7,982 bases of DNA from a virus (IMGVR_UViG_2690316184_000004:1-7982), one strand, 5' to 3'. Counted from the stretch's first letter, positions 1-7,982 are shown. Numbers and translations: made by a program. Notes: generated from the letters alone by a model not told the origin.

Positions 1-969
1 ATGAGTGAAGTAACAGATTTAGTTGTTATTGAAAAAGCAAATGCAATGACTGTATTTCAGTCTGCCGACCAGATTGAAGAAATCCTTCAAAGGGTTGAAC
101 GTGAAGTTATGTCCTTTGTGCCTGATATCACAACGGCAAAGGGCAGAAAGGAGATCGCTTCTCTGGCGTATAAAGTTGCGCAGACGAAAACATATCTCGA
201 TGGTCTTGGCAAAGACCTTGTTGCTGAACTGAAGGAAATTCCAAAGCTAATTGATGCTAACCGCAAGACAGTGCGTGATCGCCTTGATGAGCTGAAAGCC
301 AAGGCACGCCAGCCTCTTACTGATTATGAGGAAGAACAGGCGCGGATTAAAGCCGAAGAAGAAGCTAAGGCAGCAGCTGAAGCTCTCGCAAAGCAAATTG
401 AGTCTGACCATGAAATAGCGATTTTGATGGATCGCGAATTTGACCGCCAAAGAGAAGAGGCAAGACTCAAAGCGGAGCAGGAAAAGCGAGAGCATGAAGA
501 ACGCTTAAAAAAAGAAGCTGAAGAGAAAGCCAGAGCTGAAGCCGAAGCAAAGGCAAAAGCCGAAATTGAAGCAGCAGCAAGGCGAGAAGCAGAAGCTAAG
601 GCCGCAGCGGAACGTGCAGAGCGTGAACGCATTGAAGCCGAGCAACGAGCACAGCGCGAAGCAAAAGAGGCAGCAGAACGAGCTGAAAGAGAAAAGCAGG
701 CGGCAATTGAAGCAGAACGCCGAAAAGCACAGGAGGAGGCTGAACGAATCCGGCGCGAGGCTGAAGCAAAAGAGCAAGCCAGAATAGCAGAAGAAAAAAG
801 AATCAAGGACGAAGAAGAGCGTAGAGCAAAGGATAAAGCTCACCGGAAAGAAGTAAATAACAAAATACTTGCTGACCTTATCAAGGTTGGCGCATCAGAA
901 GATGTTGCTAAAAATATCATAACAGCCATCGTAAAAGGCGAAGTATTCGCAACAAAAATAACCTACTAA
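1..969 (+). CDS. Phage hypothetical protein with a ~175-aa E/A/K/R-rich helical (coiled-coil or single-alpha-helix-like) central region between globular N- and C-terminal parts; may be 5'-partial since the ORF begins at window base 1
   Basis: 322-aa ORF ending in tandem stops TAATAA (967-972). Residues ~109-284 are almost entirely E, A, K, R in AEAKA/ERAERE-type repeats. Antisense and alternate-frame ORFs in the same span are low-complexity artefacts. First gene of a co-directional phage operon. Confidence 0.6.
   Translation: MSEVTDLVVIEKANAMTVFQSADQIEEILQRVEREVMSFVPDITTAKGRKEIASLAYKVAQTKTYLDGLGKDLVAELKEIPKLIDANRKTVRDRLDELKAKARQPLTDYEEEQARIKAEEEAKAAAEALAKQIESDHEIAILMDREFDRQREEARLKAEQEKREHEERLKKEAEEKARAEAEAKAKAEIEAAARREAEAKAAAERAERERIEAEQRAQREAKEAAERAEREKQAAIEAERRKAQEEAERIRREAEAKEQARIAEEKRIKDEEERRAKDKAHRKEVNNKILADLIKVGASEDVAKNIITAIVKGEVFATKITY
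325..850 (+). repeat. Purine-rich codon-repeat low-complexity tract (GAA/GCA/AAG/CGA codons) encoding the charged helical region of the first CDS
   Basis: Visibly repetitive gaagc/aaggc/gcagaa units in the sequence. It generates spurious ORFs on both strands (87-302, 247-495, 324-806, 505-843 on -, and 566-787 on +). Confidence 0.5.
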
Positions 970-992
970 TAAACCAACATAAGGAACCACCC

Positions 993-1124
993 ATGATTTA
1001 CGCAATCGCGGGAGGCGCTCGCATGGGTGCCTTCCAACTAAATGAATCTTTACTTGAACGAATCACCCGTAAATTACGTGACGGATGGAAAAGAGTTGAG
1101 GTCTTATTATGCGCAATGAAATAG
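993..1124 (+). CDS. cIII: CIII-like small protein (lambda CIII family, inhibitor of host FtsH protease), 43 aa
   Basis: ATG at 993 preceded by AAGGAA (981-986). Product MIYAIAGGARMGAFQLNESLLERITRKLRDGWKRVEVLLCAMK contains the ESLLERITRKLRDGWKR core that I recall as the conserved amphipathic helix of lambda CIII. Below the 60-aa ORF-track cutoff. Sits where cIII lies in lambda, upstream of kil and the recombination genes. Confidence 0.55.
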   Translation: MIYAIAGGARMGAFQLNESLLERITRKLRDGWKRVEVLLCAMK

Positions 1125-1261
1125 CCATTAATCACCAGATGCTTCGTGCGGCACAAAACAAAGCAGTAATAGCCAGATTTATTGGTGATTCAAAAATGTG
1201 GCTTGAAGCAAATAAAGCGATGAAATCAGCTATCAACCTTCCGTGGTATCGCAGGAAATGA
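1109..1261 (+). CDS. Kil-like small protein (candidate host cell-division inhibitor), 50 aa
   Basis: ATG 1109 with GAGG (1098-1101) upstream; overlaps the cIII-like ORF by 16 nt in another frame. Product MRNEIAINHQMLRAAQNKAVIARFIGDSKMWLEANKAMKSAINLPWYRRK. The IA-FIGD-KM motif resembles my recollection of lambda Kil, and the position after cIII matches lambda order. Assignment from memory only. Confidence 0.4.
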   Translation: MRNEIAINHQMLRAAQNKAVIARFIGDSKMWLEANKAMKSAINLPWYRRK

Positions 1262-1416
1262 GTTTTACAGATAACTGGTCAGACGAAGAATTCATTCGTC
1301 AGATGAAAGAATTAATCGGTAACGAAGGAGATATTCATGTCACTTGCAACCACAGTGAAGGAGAGCAAGTTACAGAGGCGCATGTACACGCAGAAAGCTC
1401 TCTGGTATCGCCATAA
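1258..1416 (+). CDS. Hypothetical small phage protein, 52 aa
   Basis: ATG 1258 overlaps the upstream TGA stop (ATGA, 1258-1261), suggesting translational coupling. The only Shine-Dalgarno-like AGGA is 1 nt from the ATG, so the start is uncertain. Product MSFTDNWSDEEFIRQMKELIGNEGDIHVTCNHSEGEQVTEAHVHAESSLVSP. Confidence 0.3.
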   Translation: MSFTDNWSDEEFIRQMKELIGNEGDIHVTCNHSEGEQVTEAHVHAESSLVSP

Positions 1417-1515
1417 TGGCGACCGCGAAGGAATGCGGGTATGCCTTAATTTGTCCCGAGTCGAAGTATTAAATCAGCGTTATTTCCTTGGGCCATGTCC
1501 ATTCTGAGGTGAATT

Positions 1516-2223
1516 ATGGATTTGAACAAATTCGATGAGCCATTCAGCCCTGAAGATATCGAATGGCGAATACAGCAAAGCGGTAAAACACGCGATGGCA
1601 AAGTGTGGGCTATGGTGCTGGCTTATGTCACGAACCGGGCAATCATGAAACGCCTGGACGATGTTTGCGGCAAAGCAGGATGGCGCAATGAATACCGCGA
1701 TATTCCCAACAACGGCGGCGTTGAATGCGGCATATCAATCAAGATTGATTCCGAATGGGTAACCAAATGGGATGCTGCTGAAAACACGCAGGTAGAAGCC
1801 GTCAAAGGTGGTCGTTCAGGTGCAATGAAGCGTGCTGCCGTTCAGTGGGGAATCGGTCGGTATCTGTATAACCTTGAGGAAGGTTTCGCACAAACATCTC
1901 TCGATAAAAAGCAGGGATGGCACAGGGCAAAACTGAAGGATGGAACAGGATTTTACTGGCTCCCTCCATCGCTGCCTGGCTGGGCAATGCCAGTATCAGA
2001 TAACAAACCATCACCAGAAAATACCAACCAGAAATCTCCATCGGTTGACTGCGAACAAATCCTGAAAGACTTCAGCGATTATGCGTCGACAGAAACTGAC
2101 AAGAAAAAACTCATCGAACGTTATCAGCATGACTGGCAATTAATGGCTGGGAATGAGGATGCGCAGGCTAAATGCGTTCAGGTAATGAACATCAGAGTTA
2201 ACGAACTAAAACAGGCGGCATAA
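1516..2223 (+). CDS. Rad52/Sak-like single-strand annealing protein (DUF1071 / Rad52-22 family phage recombinase)
   Basis: 235-aa ORF; GAGG (1506-1509) 6 nt before ATG 1516. Contains the family pattern as I remember it: KRLDDVCGKAGWRNEY ... GISIKIDSEW ... KGGRSGAMKRAAVQWGIGRYLYN (GW...KRA...GIGRYLY). Immediately followed by ssb. Confidence 0.75.
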   Translation: MDLNKFDEPFSPEDIEWRIQQSGKTRDGKVWAMVLAYVTNRAIMKRLDDVCGKAGWRNEYRDIPNNGGVECGISIKIDSEWVTKWDAAENTQVEAVKGGRSGAMKRAAVQWGIGRYLYNLEEGFAQTSLDKKQGWHRAKLKDGTGFYWLPPSLPGWAMPVSDNKPSPENTNQKSPSVDCEQILKDFSDYASTETDKKKLIERYQHDWQLMAGNEDAQAKCVQVMNIRVNELKQAA

Positions 2224-2697
2224 ATGGCAAGCAGAGGCGTAAATAAGGTGATCATTATTGGTCGCCTTGGGCATGATCCAGAAATCAGATATTCACCATC
2301 AGGAACGGCATTTGCAAACCTTACAGTTGCTACGTCAGAACAATGGCGTGATAAGCAAACTGGAGAGCAAAAGGAGCAGACGGAGTGGCACCGTGTGGTA
2401 ATGAGCGGGAAACTGGCAGAAATTGCCAGCGAATATCTGCGAAAAGGCTCTGAGGTTTATCTTGAAGGCAAATTGCGGACAAGAAAATGGCAGGATCAAA
2501 GCGGACAGGATCGGTTCACTACCGAAGTCATCGTGGGCGTTGGTGGAACCATGCAAATGCTTGGTGGCAAGCAAGGAGGAAATGAACAGTCTTCACCTCA
2601 GCGAAATAACGGTCAGCAACAAAGGCAGCAACCTCAGCAGCAGGGAAATCACAGCGAACCACCTATGAACTTCGACGATTCGGATATTCCGTTCTAG
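2224..2697 (+). CDS. ssb: Single-stranded DNA-binding protein (phage-encoded SSB)
   Basis: 157 aa; ATG directly abuts the upstream TAA. N-terminal OB-fold region is near-identical in pattern to E. coli SSB ([58 protein letters not shown]). Gly/Gln-rich linker and acidic C-terminal tail DDSDIPF (E. coli DDDIPF). Confidence 0.95.
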
Positions 2698-2706
2698 GAG
2701 CTGAAA

Positions 2707-3186
2707 ATGAAAATCTGCTCAAGATGCCATCAACAGAAGGAAGAAAGGGACTTTCAAATCAGAAGAGCATCCAGAGATGGATTAACTGCCGCTTGCCGGG
2801 CTTGCCTGGCTGAATACGACAAAGAGCGCGCGGGATTGCCACATCGAGTATCAGCAAGGAGAGAATATCAATCATCGGAACGCGGCAGAGAACGGTGTAA
2901 CGCAGCCAAAAAGCGGTTCATTCAGAGCAACCCATGGAAAAGAAAAGCCCACATCATTGTGGGTAATTTTTTGCGCGACGGTAAGCTAATCCGACCACCA
3001 CAATGTGAGCGCTGCGGATCAGAATGTAAACCACAGGCGCACCACTGCGATTACAGTAAACCTCTTGAAGTAATGTGGCTATGCAAAGCATGTCATGTTG
3101 AATGGCACAAGCACAACAAGCCAATATATCCAGACGAGGAACCAGTAACCCTCCCCTTCCCTCGTCACGCTATTCACGCAATTTAA
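2707..3186 (+). CDS. HNH endonuclease with N-terminal Cys-rich (zinc-ribbon-like) region
   Basis: 159 aa; GGAG (2697-2700) before ATG 2707. C-terminal CERCGS...AHHCDYSKPLEVMWLCKACHVEWHK fits the HNH CxxC...HH...CxxCH pattern. N-terminal CSRCH ... CRAC gives a second Cys pair set. Confidence 0.75.
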   Translation: MKICSRCHQQKEERDFQIRRASRDGLTAACRACLAEYDKERAGLPHRVSARREYQSSERGRERCNAAKKRFIQSNPWKRKAHIIVGNFLRDGKLIRPPQCERCGSECKPQAHHCDYSKPLEVMWLCKACHVEWHKHNKPIYPDEEPVTLPFPRHAIHAI

Positions 3187-3194
3187 GGACTTAC

Positions 3195-3743
3195 ATGAAT
3201 CACTTAATGGTTGACCTTGAAGCAATGGGCAACGGGCCATATGCGCCAGTTATTTCTATTGGGGCGGTATTCTTTGACCCGAATACCGGAGAAACAGGAG
3301 AAGAGTTCTCGGTAAATATCTCGCTTGAGTCATCAATGCGATATCGGGCGCGTCCTGACGCTTCAACGATTTTATGGTGGATGGAACAGAGTGAAGAAGC
3401 CAGAAAATCGCTAACCAGCAACACTCAAGAGCTTTCAACGGCTCTTTCATGGTTATCTGAATTCATCATAAAGAACGCCAACCACAAACTCGTTCAGGTT
3501 TGGGGGAATGGAGCATCATTTGACTGCGTTATTCTCCGCAACAGTTATTCGCTGACAGGGCAGCCAGTTCCGTGGCAGTGGTGGAATGACCGCGACGTAA
3601 GAACAATCGTCGAACTTGGGAAGGTAATAGGATTCGATCCTAAGCGAGATATGCCATTCAAAGGAACTCGCCACAACGCGCTTGATGATGCCATCCACCA
3701 AGCCAAATACGTTTCAGCGATCTGGAAAAAGTTAGCTAAATAA
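3195..3743 (+). CDS. DEDDh-type 3'-5' exonuclease (DnaQ-like fold; resembles the Rv2179c-like exonuclease family found in prophages)
   Basis: Start chosen at ATG 3195 (AAGGAC at 3185-3190) rather than the overlapping 3102 extension. Motif I MVDLEAMG (D-x-E), motif II GNGASFDCVIL (Asp), motif III GTRHNALDDAIHQAKY (His...Asp). Confidence 0.8.
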   Translation: MNHLMVDLEAMGNGPYAPVISIGAVFFDPNTGETGEEFSVNISLESSMRYRARPDASTILWWMEQSEEARKSLTSNTQELSTALSWLSEFIIKNANHKLVQVWGNGASFDCVILRNSYSLTGQPVPWQWWNDRDVRTIVELGKVIGFDPKRDMPFKGTRHNALDDAIHQAKYVSAIWKKLAK

Positions 3744-3759
3744 TCAACAGGAGAAAACC

Positions 3760-4053
3760 ATGCCAGCGCCTCTGTATGGTGCGGATGACCCGCGCCGCTG
3801 TTCCGGCAATTCCGTATCGGAGGTGCTGGATAAATTCAGGAAAAACTACAACCGGATAATGTCGATACCGCAGGAAACGAAAGAGGAAAAGGAATTTCGC
3901 CACTGTATATGGCTTGCAGAGAAAGAAGAACGAGAGCGAATTTACCAGACATCAATCCGACCATTCCGCAAAGCCACATATACCCACTTCCCTGAAATTG
4001 ACCCGCGCCTGCGTAATTACCGCTCACGCTATGGCGCTATCAGTAATGACTGA
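3760..4053 (+). CDS. abc2: Abc2-like protein (P22 anti-RecBCD protein 2 family) - tentative
   Basis: 97 aa; AGGAG (3749-3753) 6 nt before ATG 3760. N-terminus [13 protein letters not shown] and the size match my recollection of P22-type Abc2 annotations in Salmonella/E. coli prophages. Position directly after the recombination genes is consistent. Not verified by alignment. Confidence 0.5.
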
Positions 4054-4063
4054 GGAATTTACC

Positions 4064-4231
4064 ATGAGAGGACTTGCATACAATCCCGGCATTCTTCCGG
4101 CAGAAATGATTATTCGCCAACGCGTAAAGCCAATGCCATCGAGAGAGGAATTGCTTAAGAGAAATTCTTTTCCTTCAGTGAATCAAAACAAATATCTGAA
4201 TGCGATGTGGCGCAAAGGAGGCAACCAGTGA
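4064..4231 (+). CDS. Hypothetical small phage protein, 55 aa
   Basis: ATG 4064 with GAGGAA (4052-4057) upstream; in frame with the track's 3914-4231 ORF but avoids overlap with the upstream gene. Stop TGA overlaps the next GTG start (GTGA, 4228-4231). Product [55 protein letters not shown]. Confidence 0.4.
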
Positions 4232-4671
4232 GCAAGATTGATTATCAAAAGCTTCGTGAAATCGCTGAAAAAACAAAAATTGCTGGTGAAGCACCTGTAA
4301 TGCCTTTCGATCAGCGAATTAATGCGCTTAACGATTTTATGAAGCACTTTTCGCCAGATATCGCGCTGGCATTGTTGGATGAACGGGAAAGAAACCTGCA
4401 ATACATCAAAAGCCGCGATCAGGAGAACGAGGATATTGCGCTAACGGTAGGGAAGCTGCGTGTTGAGCTGGAAGCAGAAAAACAGCGGGCAAAAGTTCTA
4501 TTTATGGAAAATGCTCGGCTTAAGTCAGGCGTAGCCGGTCTGATACACCTCGGTATTCGATATGCAGATGTTGAGGTCATGAGAATTGCTGGAGATGCCC
4601 AGCTTTCTACCCCATGCACTGACAGCATCATAAACAGCATTGCAACAGGCATTCGCATCAAAGGAGAGTGA
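4228..4671 (+). CDS. Ead/Ea22-like protein (N-terminal Ead/Ea22 domain only)
   Basis: Likely GTG start at 4228 with strong AAAGGAGG (4214-4221) 6 nt upstream; the track start at 4207 is also a GTG. N-terminus [15 protein letters not shown]...G matches the (I)DYQALRExAEKA opening typical of Ead/Ea22-like prophage proteins. 147 aa. Confidence 0.6.
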
Positions 4672-4672
4672 G

Positions 4673-4864
4673 ATGAACGGACAAATCTCAATTGTTCGAC
4701 CGGGAGCATGTGACGATCGCGAGATACGAATGATTATTCGTCTGTCGATGGGGAAAACAATAACGGCTCTCATTACTCCAGAAAATCTCGCATTAGCATT
4801 AACCGGAAAGTCAGACCTGCCAGTAGAGCTAAAGCTGCGAAATGTTGAGATTAAGGTGAAATAG
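4673..4864 (+). CDS. Hypothetical small phage protein, 63 aa
   Basis: ATG 4673 with GGAG (4663-4666) 6 nt upstream, 1 nt after the upstream TGA. Product MNGQISIVRPGACDDREIRMIIRLSMGKTITALITPENLALALTGKSDLPVELKLRNVEIKVK. No family recognised. Confidence 0.45.
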   Translation: MNGQISIVRPGACDDREIRMIIRLSMGKTITALITPENLALALTGKSDLPVELKLRNVEIKVK

Positions 4865-4866
4865 CT

Positions 4867-5430
4867 ATGACCACTATAACCAATAAGAAACAGTATCCCA
4901 GCGAGCAATATCTTAATGAGCTGATCACCAACATAGAGTTTGCTGCAAGGGCACCAGTTGAAGTCGTGAGAGCGATGGCAGCAGAGCTACAGAAGCGGCG
5001 CGAAGCTGATAGTGCCGAACCTGCAAGTAATCATGAAGAGTTGCCGCTTGATTATCTCCAAGGTCAAAAAGATGGTCTTGAATGGGCTGCGCAGCTTGCA
5101 GAAGCAAATCACCCACAAACTGGCGACTGGCTTTACGATGACCCGCTGGAGCTGGCTAAAGCTATCAGAAAAGGTCCTGACATGCCCGAATTCGATGGAC
5201 CAACTCCGGTAACTCCGGATGGTTGGATAAGCTGTAGTGAGCAAATGCCTGATGATGGTCAGCACGTAATTATTTTATGTGATGGTGCATTCGTTCTTTA
5301 TGCACAATATCGAGACGGTGAGTTTTTTGATGTTGTCCGCAATGGTGAGGAGTTCTTCGAAACGCAGAGCCGCAATGTAACCGACTGGATGCCTCTACCA
5401 GAACCGCCGCAGGAGGTTAACCGTGGCTAA
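4867..5430 (+). CDS. DUF551-domain phage protein (domain usually found at the C-terminus of Ead/Ea22-like proteins)
   Basis: 187 aa; ATG 4867 two nt after upstream TAG; AAGGTGA (4853-4859) upstream. C-terminal WISCSEQMPDDGQHVIIL...TDWMPLPEPP fits the DUF551 signature (W-I-x-V/C-x-E/D-x-L/M-P ... W-M-P-L-P-E-P-P) as I recall it. Confidence 0.65.
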   Translation: MTTITNKKQYPSEQYLNELITNIEFAARAPVEVVRAMAAELQKRREADSAEPASNHEELPLDYLQGQKDGLEWAAQLAEANHPQTGDWLYDDPLELAKAIRKGPDMPEFDGPTPVTPDGWISCSEQMPDDGQHVIILCDGAFVLYAQYRDGEFFDVVRNGEEFFETQSRNVTDWMPLPEPPQEVNRG

Positions 5431-5707
5431 CCTTCAACTGGTAGTTAACGGTGAATATTTCGACCAGATGAAGTCAGGCGAGAAAACGGAAGAGTATCGC
5501 CTGTGTAATGACTACTGGAATAAGCGAATTATGTTCCGGGAGTATGACCGCCTGATTATCACAAAGGGATATCCGAAGCGCGACGATTCCAGCCGCAGAA
5601 TTGATGTTCCGTATGACGGATATGAAATCAAGACAATCACACATCCGCACTTCGGCGATAAACCGGTAAAGGTATACGCGATAAAGGTGAATATCGGCAA
5701 TGAATAA
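5423..5707 (+). CDS. Hypothetical phage protein, possibly ASCH/PUA-like fold
   Basis: GTG 5423 with AGGAGG (5411-5416) 6 nt upstream; overlaps the upstream stop by 8 nt. 94 aa. Pattern VVNGEYFDQMKSGEKTEEYR ... LIITKGY ... VKVYAIKV loosely resembles ASCH-domain beta-barrel proteins (e.g. YqfB-like). Weak assignment. Confidence 0.5.
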   Translation: MANLQLVVNGEYFDQMKSGEKTEEYRLCNDYWNKRIMFREYDRLIITKGYPKRDDSSRRIDVPYDGYEIKTITHPHFGDKPVKVYAIKVNIGNE

Positions 5708-5742
5708 CAATCCTCGCACTCGCGGTGATTTCTTTTATCTGA

Positions 5743-5766
5743 ACTCGCTACGGCGAGTTTTGTTTT
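5743..5766 (+). terminator. Intrinsic terminator-like hairpin (internal operon terminator or attenuator)
   Basis: 6-bp perfect stem ACTCGC (5743-5748) / GCGAGT (5753-5758), 4-nt loop TACG, followed by TTTTGTTTT. Lies in the 72-nt gap between CDS 5423-5707 and CDS 5780-5947. Confidence 0.4.
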
Positions 5767-5779
5767 ATGGAGATGATAA

Positions 5780-5947
5780 ATGCACTTCCGAGTCACAGGT
5801 GAATGGAATGGAGAACCATTCAACAGGGTTATCGAAGCAGAGGACATCAACGACTGCTATGCCCACTGGATGCTGTGGGCGCAGATAGCGCATGCAGACG
5901 TAACCAATATTCGAATTGAAGAACTGAAAGAACACCAAGCCGCCTGA
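5780..5947 (+). CDS. Hypothetical small phage protein, 55 aa
   Basis: ATG 5780 with GGAG (5769-5772) 7 nt upstream; stop TGA sits in the loop of the downstream terminator. Product MHFRVTGEWNGEPFNRVIEAEDINDCYAHWMLWAQIAHADVTNIRIEELKEHQAA. Preferred over the overlapping track ORF 5700-5888. Confidence 0.4.
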   Translation: MHFRVTGEWNGEPFNRVIEAEDINDCYAHWMLWAQIAHADVTNIRIEELKEHQAA

Positions 5948-5962
5948 TGGCGGTTTTTTATT
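5939..5962 (+). terminator. Rho-independent terminator
   Basis: GC-rich stem CCGCC (5940-5944) / GGCGG (5949-5953) with 4-nt loop TGAT, followed by T-run TTTTTTATT (5954-5962). Confidence 0.6.
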
Positions 5963-6004
5963 ACCTGATTTGCAGGTTCGATTCCCTATTCGGAGATAGC
6001 ACTC

Positions 6005-6205
6005 ATGCAACACGAACTACAACCTGATTCACTGGTTGATTTGAAATTCATCATGGCCGATACTGGCTTTGGTAAAACCTTCATCTATGACCGGATTAAG
6101 TCCGGCGACCTGCCAAAAGCCAAAGTTATCCACGGTCGAGCAAGATGGTTATATCGTGACCATTGTGAATTCAAAAATAAGCTCTTAAGCCGCGCCAATG
6201 GGTAA
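6005..6205 (+). CDS. AlpA/Xis-like prophage DNA-binding protein (excisionase or transcriptional regulator family)
   Basis: 66 aa; GGAGA (5991-5995) upstream of ATG 6005. FIMADTGFGKTFIYDRIKSGDLPKAKVIHGRARWLYRDHCEF fits the AlpA-family pattern (helix-turn-helix, tG.s.stIY..i..G.FP, conserved Trp). Last gene of the phage operon, where xis sits in lambdoid phages. Confidence 0.7.
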   Translation: MQHELQPDSLVDLKFIMADTGFGKTFIYDRIKSGDLPKAKVIHGRARWLYRDHCEFKNKLLSRANG

Positions 6206-6221
6206 AATAGCGGGTAAAATA
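6200..6221 (+). repeat. Tandem direct repeat GGGTAAAATA x2 (12-bp period) overlapping the AlpA-like stop codon
   Basis: GGGTAAAATA at 6200-6209 and again at 6212-6221, separated by GC. Each copy contains a -10-like TAAAAT. Confidence 0.4.
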
Positions 6222-6254
6222 TTTCTCACATCTAAAAAACACCATTCCAATCAA

Positions 6255-6288
6255 TCCCCTGCTGCTTCAAGTAGATGTCTGCAGGGGA
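6255..6288. repeat. 8-bp inverted repeat TCCCCTGC / GCAGGGGA with 18-nt spacer
   Basis: TCCCCTGC (6255-6262) is the exact reverse complement of GCAGGGGA (6281-6288). No U-tract follows on either strand. Confidence 0.35.
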
Positions 6289-6681
6289 CACCAGATACCC
6301 TTCAAACGAAATCTACCTTCACCCCGTAAAAGATGGGTTTGGCAGCACACTTGCCTTATATCTACTCATTTTTACTGCAACAGGTTGAAATCTCAGCACT
6401 GTCAGAAAGCGCTGATGACTAAACAGCCCTGAGCCGGGCGATGTAACCATCACACAGAATCCTGATAGCGAAATATGGCGTGACTCGATACTTCACTCCG
6501 CAATGCATTCCTTGATGAATTCGCAGGACCGTGATACACGGGACAGGTCACTGAATGACGACAATGTCCTGGAAATCAGCGAACCGCGCATCTGAAGTAC
6601 ATTTGAGCGACTGTACCAGAACATGAATGAGGCGTTTGGATTAGGCGATTATTAGCAGGGCTAAGCATTTTACTATTATTA

Positions 6682-6725
6682 TTTTCCGGTTGAGGGATAT
6701 AGAGCTATCGACAACAACCGGAAAA
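6682..6725. repeat. 11-bp perfect inverted repeat TTTTCCGGTTG / CAACCGGAAAA with 22-nt spacer, 10 bp from the transporter stop codon
   Basis: TTTTCCGGTTG (6682-6692) and CAACCGGAAAA (6715-6725) are exact reverse complements. The T/A runs are part of the stem, not a 3' U-tract, so it is not a canonical intrinsic terminator on either strand. Confidence 0.4.
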
Positions 6726-6734
6726 AGTTTACGT

Positions 6735-7982
6735 CTATATTGCTGAAGGTACAGGCGTTTCCATAACTATTTGCTCGCGTTTTTTACTCAAGAAGAAAAT
6801 GCCAAATAGCAACATCAGGCAGACAATACCCGAAATTGCGAAGAAAACTGTCTGGTAGCCTGCGTGGTCAAAGAGTATCCCAGTCGGCGTTGAAAGCAGC
6901 ACAATCCCAAGCGAACTGGCAATTTGAAAACCAATCAGAAAGATCGTCGACGACAGGCGCTTATCAAAGTTTGCCACGCTGTATTTGAAGACGGATATGA
7001 CACAAAGTGGAACCTCAATGGCATGTAACAACTTCACTAATGAAATAATCCAGGGGTTAACGAACAGCGCGCAGGAAAGGATACGCAACGCCATAATCAC
7101 AACTCCGATAAGTAATGCATTTTTTGGCCCTACCCGATTCACAAAGAAAGGAATAATCGCCATGCACAGCGCTTCGAGTACCACCTGGAATGAGTTGAGA
7201 TAACCATACAGGCGCGTTCCTACATCGTGTGATTCGAATAAACCTGCATAAAAGACAGGAAAAAGTTGTTGATCAAAAATGTTATAGAAAGACCACGTCC
7301 CCACAATAAATATGACGAAAACCCAGAAGTTTCGATCCTTGAAAACTGCGATAAAATCCTCTTTTTTTACCCCTCCCGCATCTGCCGCTACGCACTGGTG
7401 ATCCTTATCTTTAAAACGCATGTTGATCATCATAAATACAGCGCCAAATAGCGAGACCAACCAGAAGTTGATATGGGGACTGATACTAAAAAATATGCCG
7501 GCAAAGAACGCGCCAATAGCATAGCCAAAAGATCCCCAGGCGCGCGCTGTTCCATATTCGAAATGAAAATTTCGCGCCATTTTTTCGGTGAAGCTATCAA
7601 GCAAACCGCATCCCGCCAGATACCCCAAGCCAAAAAATAGCGCCCCCGGAATTAGACCTACAGAAAAATTGCTTTGCAGTAACGGTTCATAAACGTAAAT
7701 CATAAACGGTCCGGTCAAGACCAGGATGAAACTCATACACCAGATGAGCGGTTTCTTCAGACCGAGTTTATCCTGAACGATGCCGTAGAACATCATAAAT
7801 AGAATGCTGGTAAACTGGTTGACCGAATAAAGTGTACCTAATTCCGTCCCTGTCAACCCTAGATGTCCTTTCAGCCAAATAGCGTATAACGACCACCACA
7901 GCGACCAGGAAATAAAAAAGAGAAATGAGTAACTGGATGCAAAACGATAGTACGCATTTCTGAATGGAATATTCAGTGCCAT
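6735..7982 (-). CDS. MFS transporter of the LacY-like oligosaccharide:H+ symporter family (substrate unknown)
   Basis: 415-aa ORF on the - strand with ATG at the very window edge (7980-7982), stop TAG at 6735-6737. Highly hydrophobic with about 12 predicted TM segments. N-terminal NAYYRFASSYSFLFFISWSLWWSLYAIWL parallels LacY [28 protein letters not shown]. The true start may lie beyond the window. Confidence 0.85.
   Translation of the reverse strand: MALNIPFRNAYYRFASSYSFLFFISWSLWWSLYAIWLKGHLGLTGTELGTLYSVNQFTSILFMMFYGIVQDKLGLKKPLIWCMSFILVLTGPFMIYVYEPLLQSNFSVGLIPGALFFGLGYLAGCGLLDSFTEKMARNFHFEYGTARAWGSFGYAIGAFFAGIFFSISPHINFWLVSLFGAVFMMINMRFKDKDHQCVAADAGGVKKEDFIAVFKDRNFWVFVIFIVGTWSFYNIFDQQLFPVFYAGLFESHDVGTRLYGYLNSFQVVLEALCMAIIPFFVNRVGPKNALLIGVVIMALRILSCALFVNPWIISLVKLLHAIEVPLCVISVFKYSVANFDKRLSSTIFLIGFQIASSLGIVLLSTPTGILFDHAGYQTVFFAISGIVCLMLLFGIFFLSKKREQIVMETPVPSAI

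Follow-up and report, generated by a model that had tools for sequence, protein, structure and literature searches.

In phage T4, segG is a promoterless free-standing homing gene that lies between genes 32 and 59 and targets gene 32, which encodes the single-stranded DNA-binding protein (SSB). The Rec modules of ES18-type lambdoid phages encode an 'HNH nuclease' (Sf6 gp26 and ES18 gp47), whose gene in Sf6 and ES18 lies between ssb and abc2 (Casjens et al. 2004, 2005; PMC12315714), and a warning about the mobility of HNH genes has been given (Zheng, Casjens et al. 2025, PMC12315714). The Sf6 record also notes 14 residues held in common with 'E. coli SSB'. The same gene occurs at 2707-3186 in IMGVR_UViG_2690316184_000004:1-7982, a stretch of viral DNA of 7,982 nucleotides referred to here as the window, where it is an HNH open reading frame (ORF) behind ssb. 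In itself the gene is already known, as the HNH gene of Sf6 and ES18. From comparison of its junctions and placement with those of relatives, we consider it somewhat better than an even chance that it is a free-standing homing-type gene targeting the 3' ends of ssb genes, a reading that fits better than a fixed part of the recombination machinery.

The features on which this reading depends are the following.

2668-2697, plus strand: HNH-linked tip DNA, encoding NFDDSDIPF and the stop codon of ssb; left junction of the indel
2696-2706, plus strand: Shine-Dalgarno sequence AGGAG (2696-2700, read from the sequence) and a 6-nt spacer
2707-3186, plus strand: predicted HNH nuclease ORF of 159 amino acids, Sf6 gp26/ES18 gp47 type (PHROG 2340)
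2707-2808, plus strand: N-terminal Cys4 zinc ribbon (C4, C7, C30, C33), the cysteines invariant in 59 homologues
3004-3108, plus strand: predicted beta-beta-alpha-metal core (C100-x2-C103, H112-H113, C126-x2-C129-H130, H134)
3040-3141, plus strand: tract of the P0024 type (49% amino acid identity overall) within the HNH gene
3142-3186, plus strand: shared tail of 14 codons (PVTLPFPRHAIHAI) and stop codon; right junction of the indel, from alignment

Among close relatives, the HNH gene is a presence/absence polymorphism at a fixed site with homologous flanks. The order erf-ssb-HNH-exo-abc2 is found in the window, in Bas106 and in strain ISHS7, and erf-ssb-exo-abc2, without the HNH gene, in E. 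coli W13-16 and phage mEpX2. Similarly, Sf6 and ES18 have erf-ssb-HNH-abc2 and strain CS5L has erf-ssb-abc2. The synteny comparison proposed with the original prediction, which described an HNH gene inserted between ssb and the exonuclease gene, a homing endonuclease or else a genuine nuclease partner of the module, turned out in favour of an insertion, with ssb running directly into the exonuclease gene (W13-16, mEpX2) or into abc2 (CS5L). In 129 loci with the shared 3' tail, which comprise the matches to its exact pattern in IMG/VR and the other loci under study, the HNH gene stands before the tail in 34 and ssb is fused to the tail in 95. The gene is thus polymorphic among relatives, and the universal conservation that would have spoken against insertion was not found. 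After the tail, the next gene in the 34 HNH-carrying loci is abc2 in 22 and the exonuclease gene in 12, and in the 95 HNH-less loci it is abc2 in 51 and the exonuclease gene in 43, with one contig end. The HNH gene is present in 108 of 5426 complete E. coli genomes and the HNH-less junction in about 300 further ones (extrapolated from 60 sampled rows). Approximately 72% of otherwise near-identical modules lack the HNH gene, which is accordingly dispensable there.

The exonuclease gene is a presence/absence cassette of its own, located exactly between the stop codon of the tail and abc2: the tail is followed by the exonuclease gene in 55 loci and by abc2 directly in 73, irrespective of the HNH state. 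The position 'between ssb and the exonuclease gene' is hence correct as regards gene order, but the insert is located in the extended 3' part of ssb, and with the exonuclease gene forming a separate cassette, the real, conserved partner of the HNH gene is the end of ssb. By GC content (0.481), GC content at third codon positions (0.438) and codon-usage distance (mid-range) the HNH ORF is indistinguishable from its neighbours, and the proposed comparison of GC and codon usage therefore decides nothing. A similar module in E. coli HCM-22C-2 has a second nuclease insertion point, with another HNH gene (WP_000018646.1, 155 amino acids) between erf and ssb (L005 2209-2676). That gene is unrelated to the HNH gene of the window.

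The junctions have the following anatomy. In HNH-less alleles, ssb passes M[DE]FDDDIPF and continues for 15 codons (APVTLPFPRHAIHAI) to a TAA, while in HNH-carrying alleles ssb ends in DDSDIPF-TAG and is followed by a ribosome-binding site and the HNH ORF, which reads into the old last 14 codons of ssb (DIPF/APVTLPFPRHAIHAI-stop versus DIPF-stop, Shine-Dalgarno, ATG…PDEE/PVTLPFPRHAIHAI-stop). The HNH ORF and the HNH-less ssb consequently end in the common 14 codons and the same TAA, and in E. coli the SSB has a free tip in HNH-carrying alleles, whereas the tail buries it in HNH-less ones. Lying 6 nt ahead of the HNH ATG, the AGGAG (2696-2700) overlaps the TAG stop codon of ssb (2695-2697) and is not found in HNH-less alleles; similarly, the AAGGA of the exonuclease gene (start at 3195) overlaps the HNH stop codon. 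The left junction is sharp. Over the preceding 217 nt of ssb the window and W13-16 differ by about 3%, whereas the last ~30 nt contain seven substitutions and a 3-nt indel of a Ser codon, and the changes of the HNH-carrying allele in the tip region include clustered synonymous ones. The right junction coincides with the end of conservation in the HNH family and with the loss of confidence in the structural model described below.

The tail is not conserved in the HNH family, is poorly modelled, and has a related copy (SPVGLQYGRHRIYAL) on the SSB of a distant metagenomic phage locus (L176), upstream of its HNH gene; for these reasons we conclude, from alignment and model, that the tail is probably part of ssb, the HNH cassette having been inserted ahead of it. 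The reverse event, a deletion fusing ssb to a native HNH tail, was considered and is less likely, with the tail outside the HNH family and disordered in the model, and the related tail on the distant phage SSB also disfavours a deletion origin for the HNH-less allele. The tail precedes either the exonuclease gene or abc2. Its 48 nt are identical across ssb backbones that are only ~70% identical, behaving like a mosaic boundary sequence, and its DNA contains a short direct repeat (TCACGC-TAT-TCACGC, 3160-3176). On HNH-less SSBs the 15-residue extension would bury the C-terminal carboxylate that is bound by partner proteins. Given its related form on a distant phage SSB, the extension looks like a conserved peptide (window 3142-3186, L001 2680-2724, L176 2810-2855). 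Many other phage SSBs encoded beside members of the HNH family have a single residue after the IPF at their end (IPFN, IPFS, IPFD).

Three HNH alleles, each with its own spacer and altered tip (DDSDIPF or DDEIPF), are found in the enterobacterial slot: the Sf6 type, an 89% variant and, at 49% identity, the P0024 type. Across enterobacterial prophages, tips are DDSDIPF or DDEIPF with the HNH gene and DDDIPF without it, and the DDSDIPF tip accompanies the HNH clade of the window on four different ssb backbones. The HNH gene of the window is itself a chimera, of the Sf6 type until approximately 3011-3051 and of the P0024 type thereafter, with the crossover within the region coding for the catalytic core. 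Compared with Sf6, it has four differences in gene positions 1-344 and 19 in positions 345-423; compared with the P0024 type, there are two mismatches in the last 147 nt, the match continuing through the shared tail.

Parallel indels have been found in two other groups of phages. In Certrevirus DU_PP_IV the HNH gene directly follows the gene for a 405-residue protein ending DFDLDIPF, its start codon overlapping the stop codon as TAATG, while Certrevirus KaOmega and several Enterobacter phages have no gene in this slot and a tip DFDDDIPF. In Certrevirus CB7 the same slot, behind a DWDDDVPF tip, holds an unrelated HNH gene, CB7_38, which is listed by the CB7 authors as a free-standing homing endonuclease. 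In Vibrio phage K71, ssb (tip DWDEDIPF) is followed by an HNH gene. The IPF codons are repeated here right after the ssb stop codon (ATTCCGTTC TGATTTG ATTCCGTTC; L213 2430-2470), so that the left junction of the insert has a direct repeat of 9 nt. The K71 relative 1.061.O has no HNH gene, and its SSB terminates in NEPPF, which looks like an in-frame deletion of the tip. Tips therefore differ between HNH-carrying and HNH-less alleles in all three lineages.

The association with SSB tips extends to the wider family. A profile search returned 1,752 clusters (50% identity) at E<=1e-30 and 34,560 at E<=1e-10, and homologues were found by tblastn in 553 phage records, including Vibrio phages (with an SSB directly upstream), Certrevirus myoviruses and Staphylococcus Kayvirus. 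Placement was scored in 68 distant IMG/VR loci, 66 of them evaluable, whose HNH proteins have 30-53% identity to the query and form 62 clusters at 70% identity, an acidic SSB-type tip being defined as [DE]…[IVL]PF at the end of the same-strand upstream ORF. In 44 of these 66, the HNH gene is preceded at 0-76 nt by the end of a tip-bearing ORF, and 55 qualify when up to 16 residues past the tip are allowed. As a control, open stretches of 60 codons or more were counted in the same loci; of 2,762, only 47 have the motif at their end, the upstream neighbour accounting for 44. Similarly, in GTDB species representatives from many phyla, a tip ORF is present within 150 nt upstream in 36 of 49 full-length prophage homologues, against 8 of 28 homologues in which similarity is confined to the HNH core. 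The tip-bearing proteins in IMG/VR comprise 18-19 canonical SSBs and members of SSB-family PHROGs (743, 9002, 7364, 18154), as well as a helicase, Pam3 gp34-like proteins and proteins of unknown function.

The HNH genes do not co-diverge with the tip-bearing genes. In loci L143 and L144 the HNH protein is 81-82% identical to that of the window, whereas identity is 30-31% for the SSB, 29-36% for the annealing protein and no more than 29% for the downstream gene. Similarity of HNH proteins and of SSBs is uncorrelated (Spearman 0.02 over 1,711 locus pairs), and in 24 of the 30 pairs with HNH proteins at least 55% identical, the tip proteins are no more than 35% identical. This absence of co-divergence indicates that the adjacency has been re-created many times, and an HNH gene more similar than its flanks is consistent with horizontal spread. 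Closely related HNH copies lie behind unrelated ssb genes, and always behind the tip.

That the ORF encodes an HNH-type nuclease is a well-supported prediction from motif and model. It is open and intact from an ATG (2707-3186, plus strand), and its 159-residue product is 97.5% identical to Sf6 gp26. In 59 homologues the residues C4, C7, C30, C33, C100, C103, H112, H113, D115, Y116, L125, H130 and H134 are invariant; of the two CxxC pairs at the core, C100 and C103 are invariant, C126 nearly so, and C129 is either Cys or His. An AlphaFold2 (AF2) model built on the alignment of these homologues (predicted local distance difference test score, pLDDT, of 93) is confident over residues 1-143 and shows a zinc ribbon with strands at residues 16-18 and 26-30, a long helical hairpin and a beta-beta-alpha unit, whose core consists of strand 110-113 (ending AHH), strand 122-125 and helix 127-136 (pLDDT ~97). 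Residues 144-159, in the tail, are poorly predicted (pLDDT 52-66). The ribosome-binding site and N-terminal Cys4 element that the original prediction ascribed to the ORF are both borne out by the sequence.

The only library family that holds the protein is PHROG 2340 'endonuclease' (1.8e-47). No match was found with Pfam models (even at E<=10) or NCBIfam models, in sequence and profile searches of the PDB, or among PADLOC and known defence systems, and PF01844 is touched by just three of the 59 family members, at E>=0.067. A Foldseek search of the PDB placed Hpy99I, Cap5 and PacI on top, none of them significant, while 33 matches at E<=1e-3 were obtained in BFVD, many annotated as HNH or endonuclease VII; one phage homologue is annotated 'PacI-like'. 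The HNH identity originally proposed is accepted on the motif, the AF2 model and, more tentatively, the fold matches, although curated sequence models do not support it. Two more specific assignments were rejected. A resolvase of the T4 endonuclease VII type is indicated by residues 1-55 alone (the zinc ribbon, matching PHROG 2633 at 9.5e-5), and Pfam Endonuclease_7 gave no match. A terminase-associated HNH protein of the HK97 gp74 type does not agree with a gene in the early-left operon, away from terminase and cos, and no terminase genes were indicated among the neighbours of 68 relatives.

The ratio of non-synonymous to synonymous substitution rates (dN/dS) of the HNH gene in the enterobacterial clade is 0.05-0.18, which indicates that the function of the protein is maintained. 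Some copies, a minority, have decayed, with one H113Q variant, frameshifts and, in three loci, an interrupted ORF, and in-frame deletion fusions of ssb with HNH and of HNH with the exonuclease occur in the protein database (among P0013, P0020, P0055, P0034 and P0089). In P0089, a cytosine methyltransferase ORF is interrupted in frame by an HNH sequence of the same family, which suggests an intron or an in-frame insertion. The Sf6-type ORF is unannotated by RefSeq (PGAP) in all of the ~100 complete E. coli genomes that carry it intact (corresponding loci: window 2707-3186 and L006 5692-6171), and the P0024-type allele is labelled 'hypothetical protein'.

The gene is thus intact and under purifying selection, encodes a protein with a predicted HNH-like fold, and is present or absent as a precise indel. 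The insertion polymorphism in the original prediction is confirmed by the 34 loci with and 95 loci without the gene; homing itself, that is nuclease activity, target site and biased inheritance, we infer. Besides the indels, the tips and the placement, points in favour of homing are the intron location of the relative I-KsaII, the precedent of T4 segG and the occurrence of some decayed copies. In the mechanism proposed, a mixed infection, or the induction of a prophage alongside a relative, would bring the two alleles together. The HNH enzyme would nick or cut the HNH-less genome at or beside the DNA for the acidic SSB tip (DDDIPF), and repair of the break, perhaps assisted by the phage's own Erf/SSB module, would copy the HNH gene and a few flanking codons from the HNH-carrying genome. 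In this lineage the cassette would have landed directly behind the IPF codons of an ssb with the 15-residue extension, giving ssb a stop codon and itself a ribosome-binding site, reading through into the old ssb tail, and bringing the altered tip of its allele (DDSDIPF or DDEIPF in place of DDDIPF). Such altered tips would be immunity changes or co-converted flanks. The SSB C-terminal tip is a docking site for many partner proteins, and since this peptide is constrained, the DNA encoding it varies very little among bacteria and phages and is the one stretch common to otherwise unrelated tip-bearing genes. More tentatively, and as something short of an even chance, the large zinc-ribbon HNH family may persist by homing to SSB-tip DNA (DDDIPF plus stop) across phyla. 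Recruitment of the nuclease by the tip peptide itself is a less likely alternative.

Several observations weigh against homing. Literature searches found no cleavage or inheritance data for members of the family. No clear co-conversion gradient is seen in E. coli ssb, where there are three far-upstream chimeras only, and the E. coli junctions are alike in all copies, so that the local pattern could stem from one or a few events followed by ordinary mosaic recombination. The six-codon target is degenerate at wobble positions, and the host's own ssb would carry the same target. In addition, the HNH classification has no curated-model match, the dN/dS is as low as that of a useful phage gene, and roughly half of the nearest relatives belong to recombination modules, with YqaJ, ERF, RecT or SSB genes as neighbours. 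The ES18 homologue has indeed been judged a likely legitimate member of the Rec module (Zheng, Casjens et al. 2025, PMC12315714). An accessory nuclease of this kind, which we consider unlikely but far from negligible, would work with SSB by binding its free tip like host SSB-interacting proteins, nicking or cutting SSB-coated gaps, D-loops or forks and so feeding Erf annealing or recombination-dependent replication, and the two genes would be adjacent because tip and nuclease are expressed and inherited together as a unit. The enrichment beside recombination genes and the strong purifying selection agree with such a role, as do the tight operon packing at translational-coupling distances, the E. 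coli tip that is free with the HNH gene and buried without it, and the joint loss of tip and HNH gene in the Vibrio phage. However, the tip of the host SSB is nearly the same, so that a tip-binding protein needs no coding within 0-76 nt of it; related HNH genes lie behind unrelated SSB bodies without co-divergence; most near-identical modules (~72%) manage without the gene; the slot is occupied by an unrelated HNH gene in CB7; and one relative, I-KsaII, is located in an intron.

It is improbable, though less so than a loss of nuclease function, that the gene is passive mosaic cargo. In that case relaxed homologous recombination by phage annealing proteins would use the tip DNA as its left crossover point and boundary sequences such as the 48-nt tail as its right one, and the genes after ssb would be shuffled with no site-specific cut by the HNH protein, which would have its role elsewhere, for example against competitor or host DNA. 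This would account for an identical tail on divergent ssb backbones, before either the exonuclease gene or abc2, and is in line with the exonuclease gene being shuffled likewise without being a homing gene, with the recombinant origin of the window HNH gene and with the boundary sequences annotated in Sf6. It leaves unexplained why one family follows tips in 70-85% of sampled loci across phyla and why tips differ with and without the HNH gene in three lineages, and the HNH protein has no match to known defence systems. An inactive remnant, or a non-nuclease zinc-finger protein that binds DNA or protein and has an HNH-like motif, could be suspected from the failure of curated HNH models and from the lack of RefSeq annotation, but is very improbable in view of the invariance of all candidate catalytic residues and zinc ligands, the dN/dS values, the confident beta-beta-alpha core of the model and the annotated HNH proteins among the BFVD matches.

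As regards the surroundings, the HNH gene lies inside a contiguous cluster of single-strand annealing protein (SAP), SSB and anti-RecBCD genes in the early-left operon, in the order erf-ssb-HNH-exo-abc2. Pfam and PHROG matches agree with the original description of erf, ssb, the exonuclease gene and abc2 as a recombination module. The remaining features of the window are listed here.

1-7982: whole window, early-left region of a P22/Sf6-like prophage, abutting cscB
1-969: gp33-like gene, then cIII and kil
1516-2223, plus strand: erf, Rad52-type annealing protein (PF04098, 4.9e-26; PHROG 1097)
2224-2697, plus strand: ssb, bacterial-type SSB (PF00436, 1.7e-38), here with a free C-terminal tip followed by the stop codon
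3195-3743, plus strand: DnaQ-like 3'-5' exonuclease gene (PF16473, 3.2e-72)
3760-4053, plus strand: abc2, anti-RecBCD (PF11043, 7.3e-63)
downstream of abc2: ead/Ea22, DUF551 and ASCH genes
6005-6205: TorI-like excisionase gene
6735-7982, minus strand: cscB

The block from erf to abc2 is 97% identical to that of phage CurroJimenez_Bas106 and of ~100 E. coli prophages. The prophage end is marked by the TorI-like excisionase gene, with cscB, read from the opposite strand, following after ~530 nt; the window contains neither an integrase gene nor a tRNA gene, and tRNA and Rfam scans of it gave no match. No promoter-like site was seen within 1400-4200. A terminator-like hairpin with a T run (GCCCACATCATTGTGGGT AATTTTTTG) is located at 2947-2964, inside the HNH coding region, although such sites are as numerous in this region as expected by chance.

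In the literature searched, no functional study of Sf6 gp26, ES18 gp47 or I-KsaII was found, nor any description of the junction anatomy, the family-wide placement behind SSB tips, the missing co-divergence of HNH and SSB or the parallel indels in three lineages. If the proposal is true, a selfish nuclease lineage follows a short coding motif that ranks among the most conserved in bacterial DNA metabolism and could invade any gene that bears the tip, including those for SSBs of several folds and even a helicase. Homing would then drive tip variants (DDSDIPF, DDEIPF, tip deletions and C-terminal extensions) as resistance alleles, which would account for odd phage SSB C-termini such as altered tips and the tip-burying 15-residue extension. 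The recurrence of a mosaic junction in lambdoid recombination modules would likewise find an explanation. Homing would also argue against scoring the HNH gene as a recombination function in the classification of phage Rec modules, and would offer a source of small nickases with a predictable natural target. There is moreover an annotation gap, with a family of this size lacking a Pfam or NCBIfam model and the ORF missed in ~100 complete E. coli genomes.

Compared with the Sf6 and ES18 loci, the window differs in having the exonuclease cassette next to the HNH gene and in the 3' fifth of that gene, which comes from a second allele. I-KsaII, encoded in polA of Staphylococcus Kayvirus, shares the two-domain layout and is homologous across 84% of the protein (35.6% identity, E 3e-22); unlike the window gene, it lies inside a group I intron of polA and has no SSB tip upstream. 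The restriction endonucleases PacI and Hpy99I, which are among the top fold matches, are likewise small beta-beta-alpha-metal enzymes with two Cys4 zinc sites. The terminase-side zinc-ribbon HNH nickases (Gme HNH, 4h9d; GVE2 HNH, 5h0o; HK97 gp74 type; Xu and Gupta 2013, as cited by Zheng, Casjens et al. 2025) belong to DNA packaging and are encoded near cos and terminase genes, whereas the window gene is in the early-left operon behind ssb. T4 SegG and the seg/mob genes are, like the window gene, promoterless, part of a polycistronic unit and variably present, and SegG also adjoins a phage SSB gene. SegG differs in being a GIY-YIG enzyme, in that gp32 has no IPF tip, and in its proven activity and biased inheritance, which for the window gene are putative. 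Among proven precedents, T4 SegG is the closest to the HNH gene of the window.

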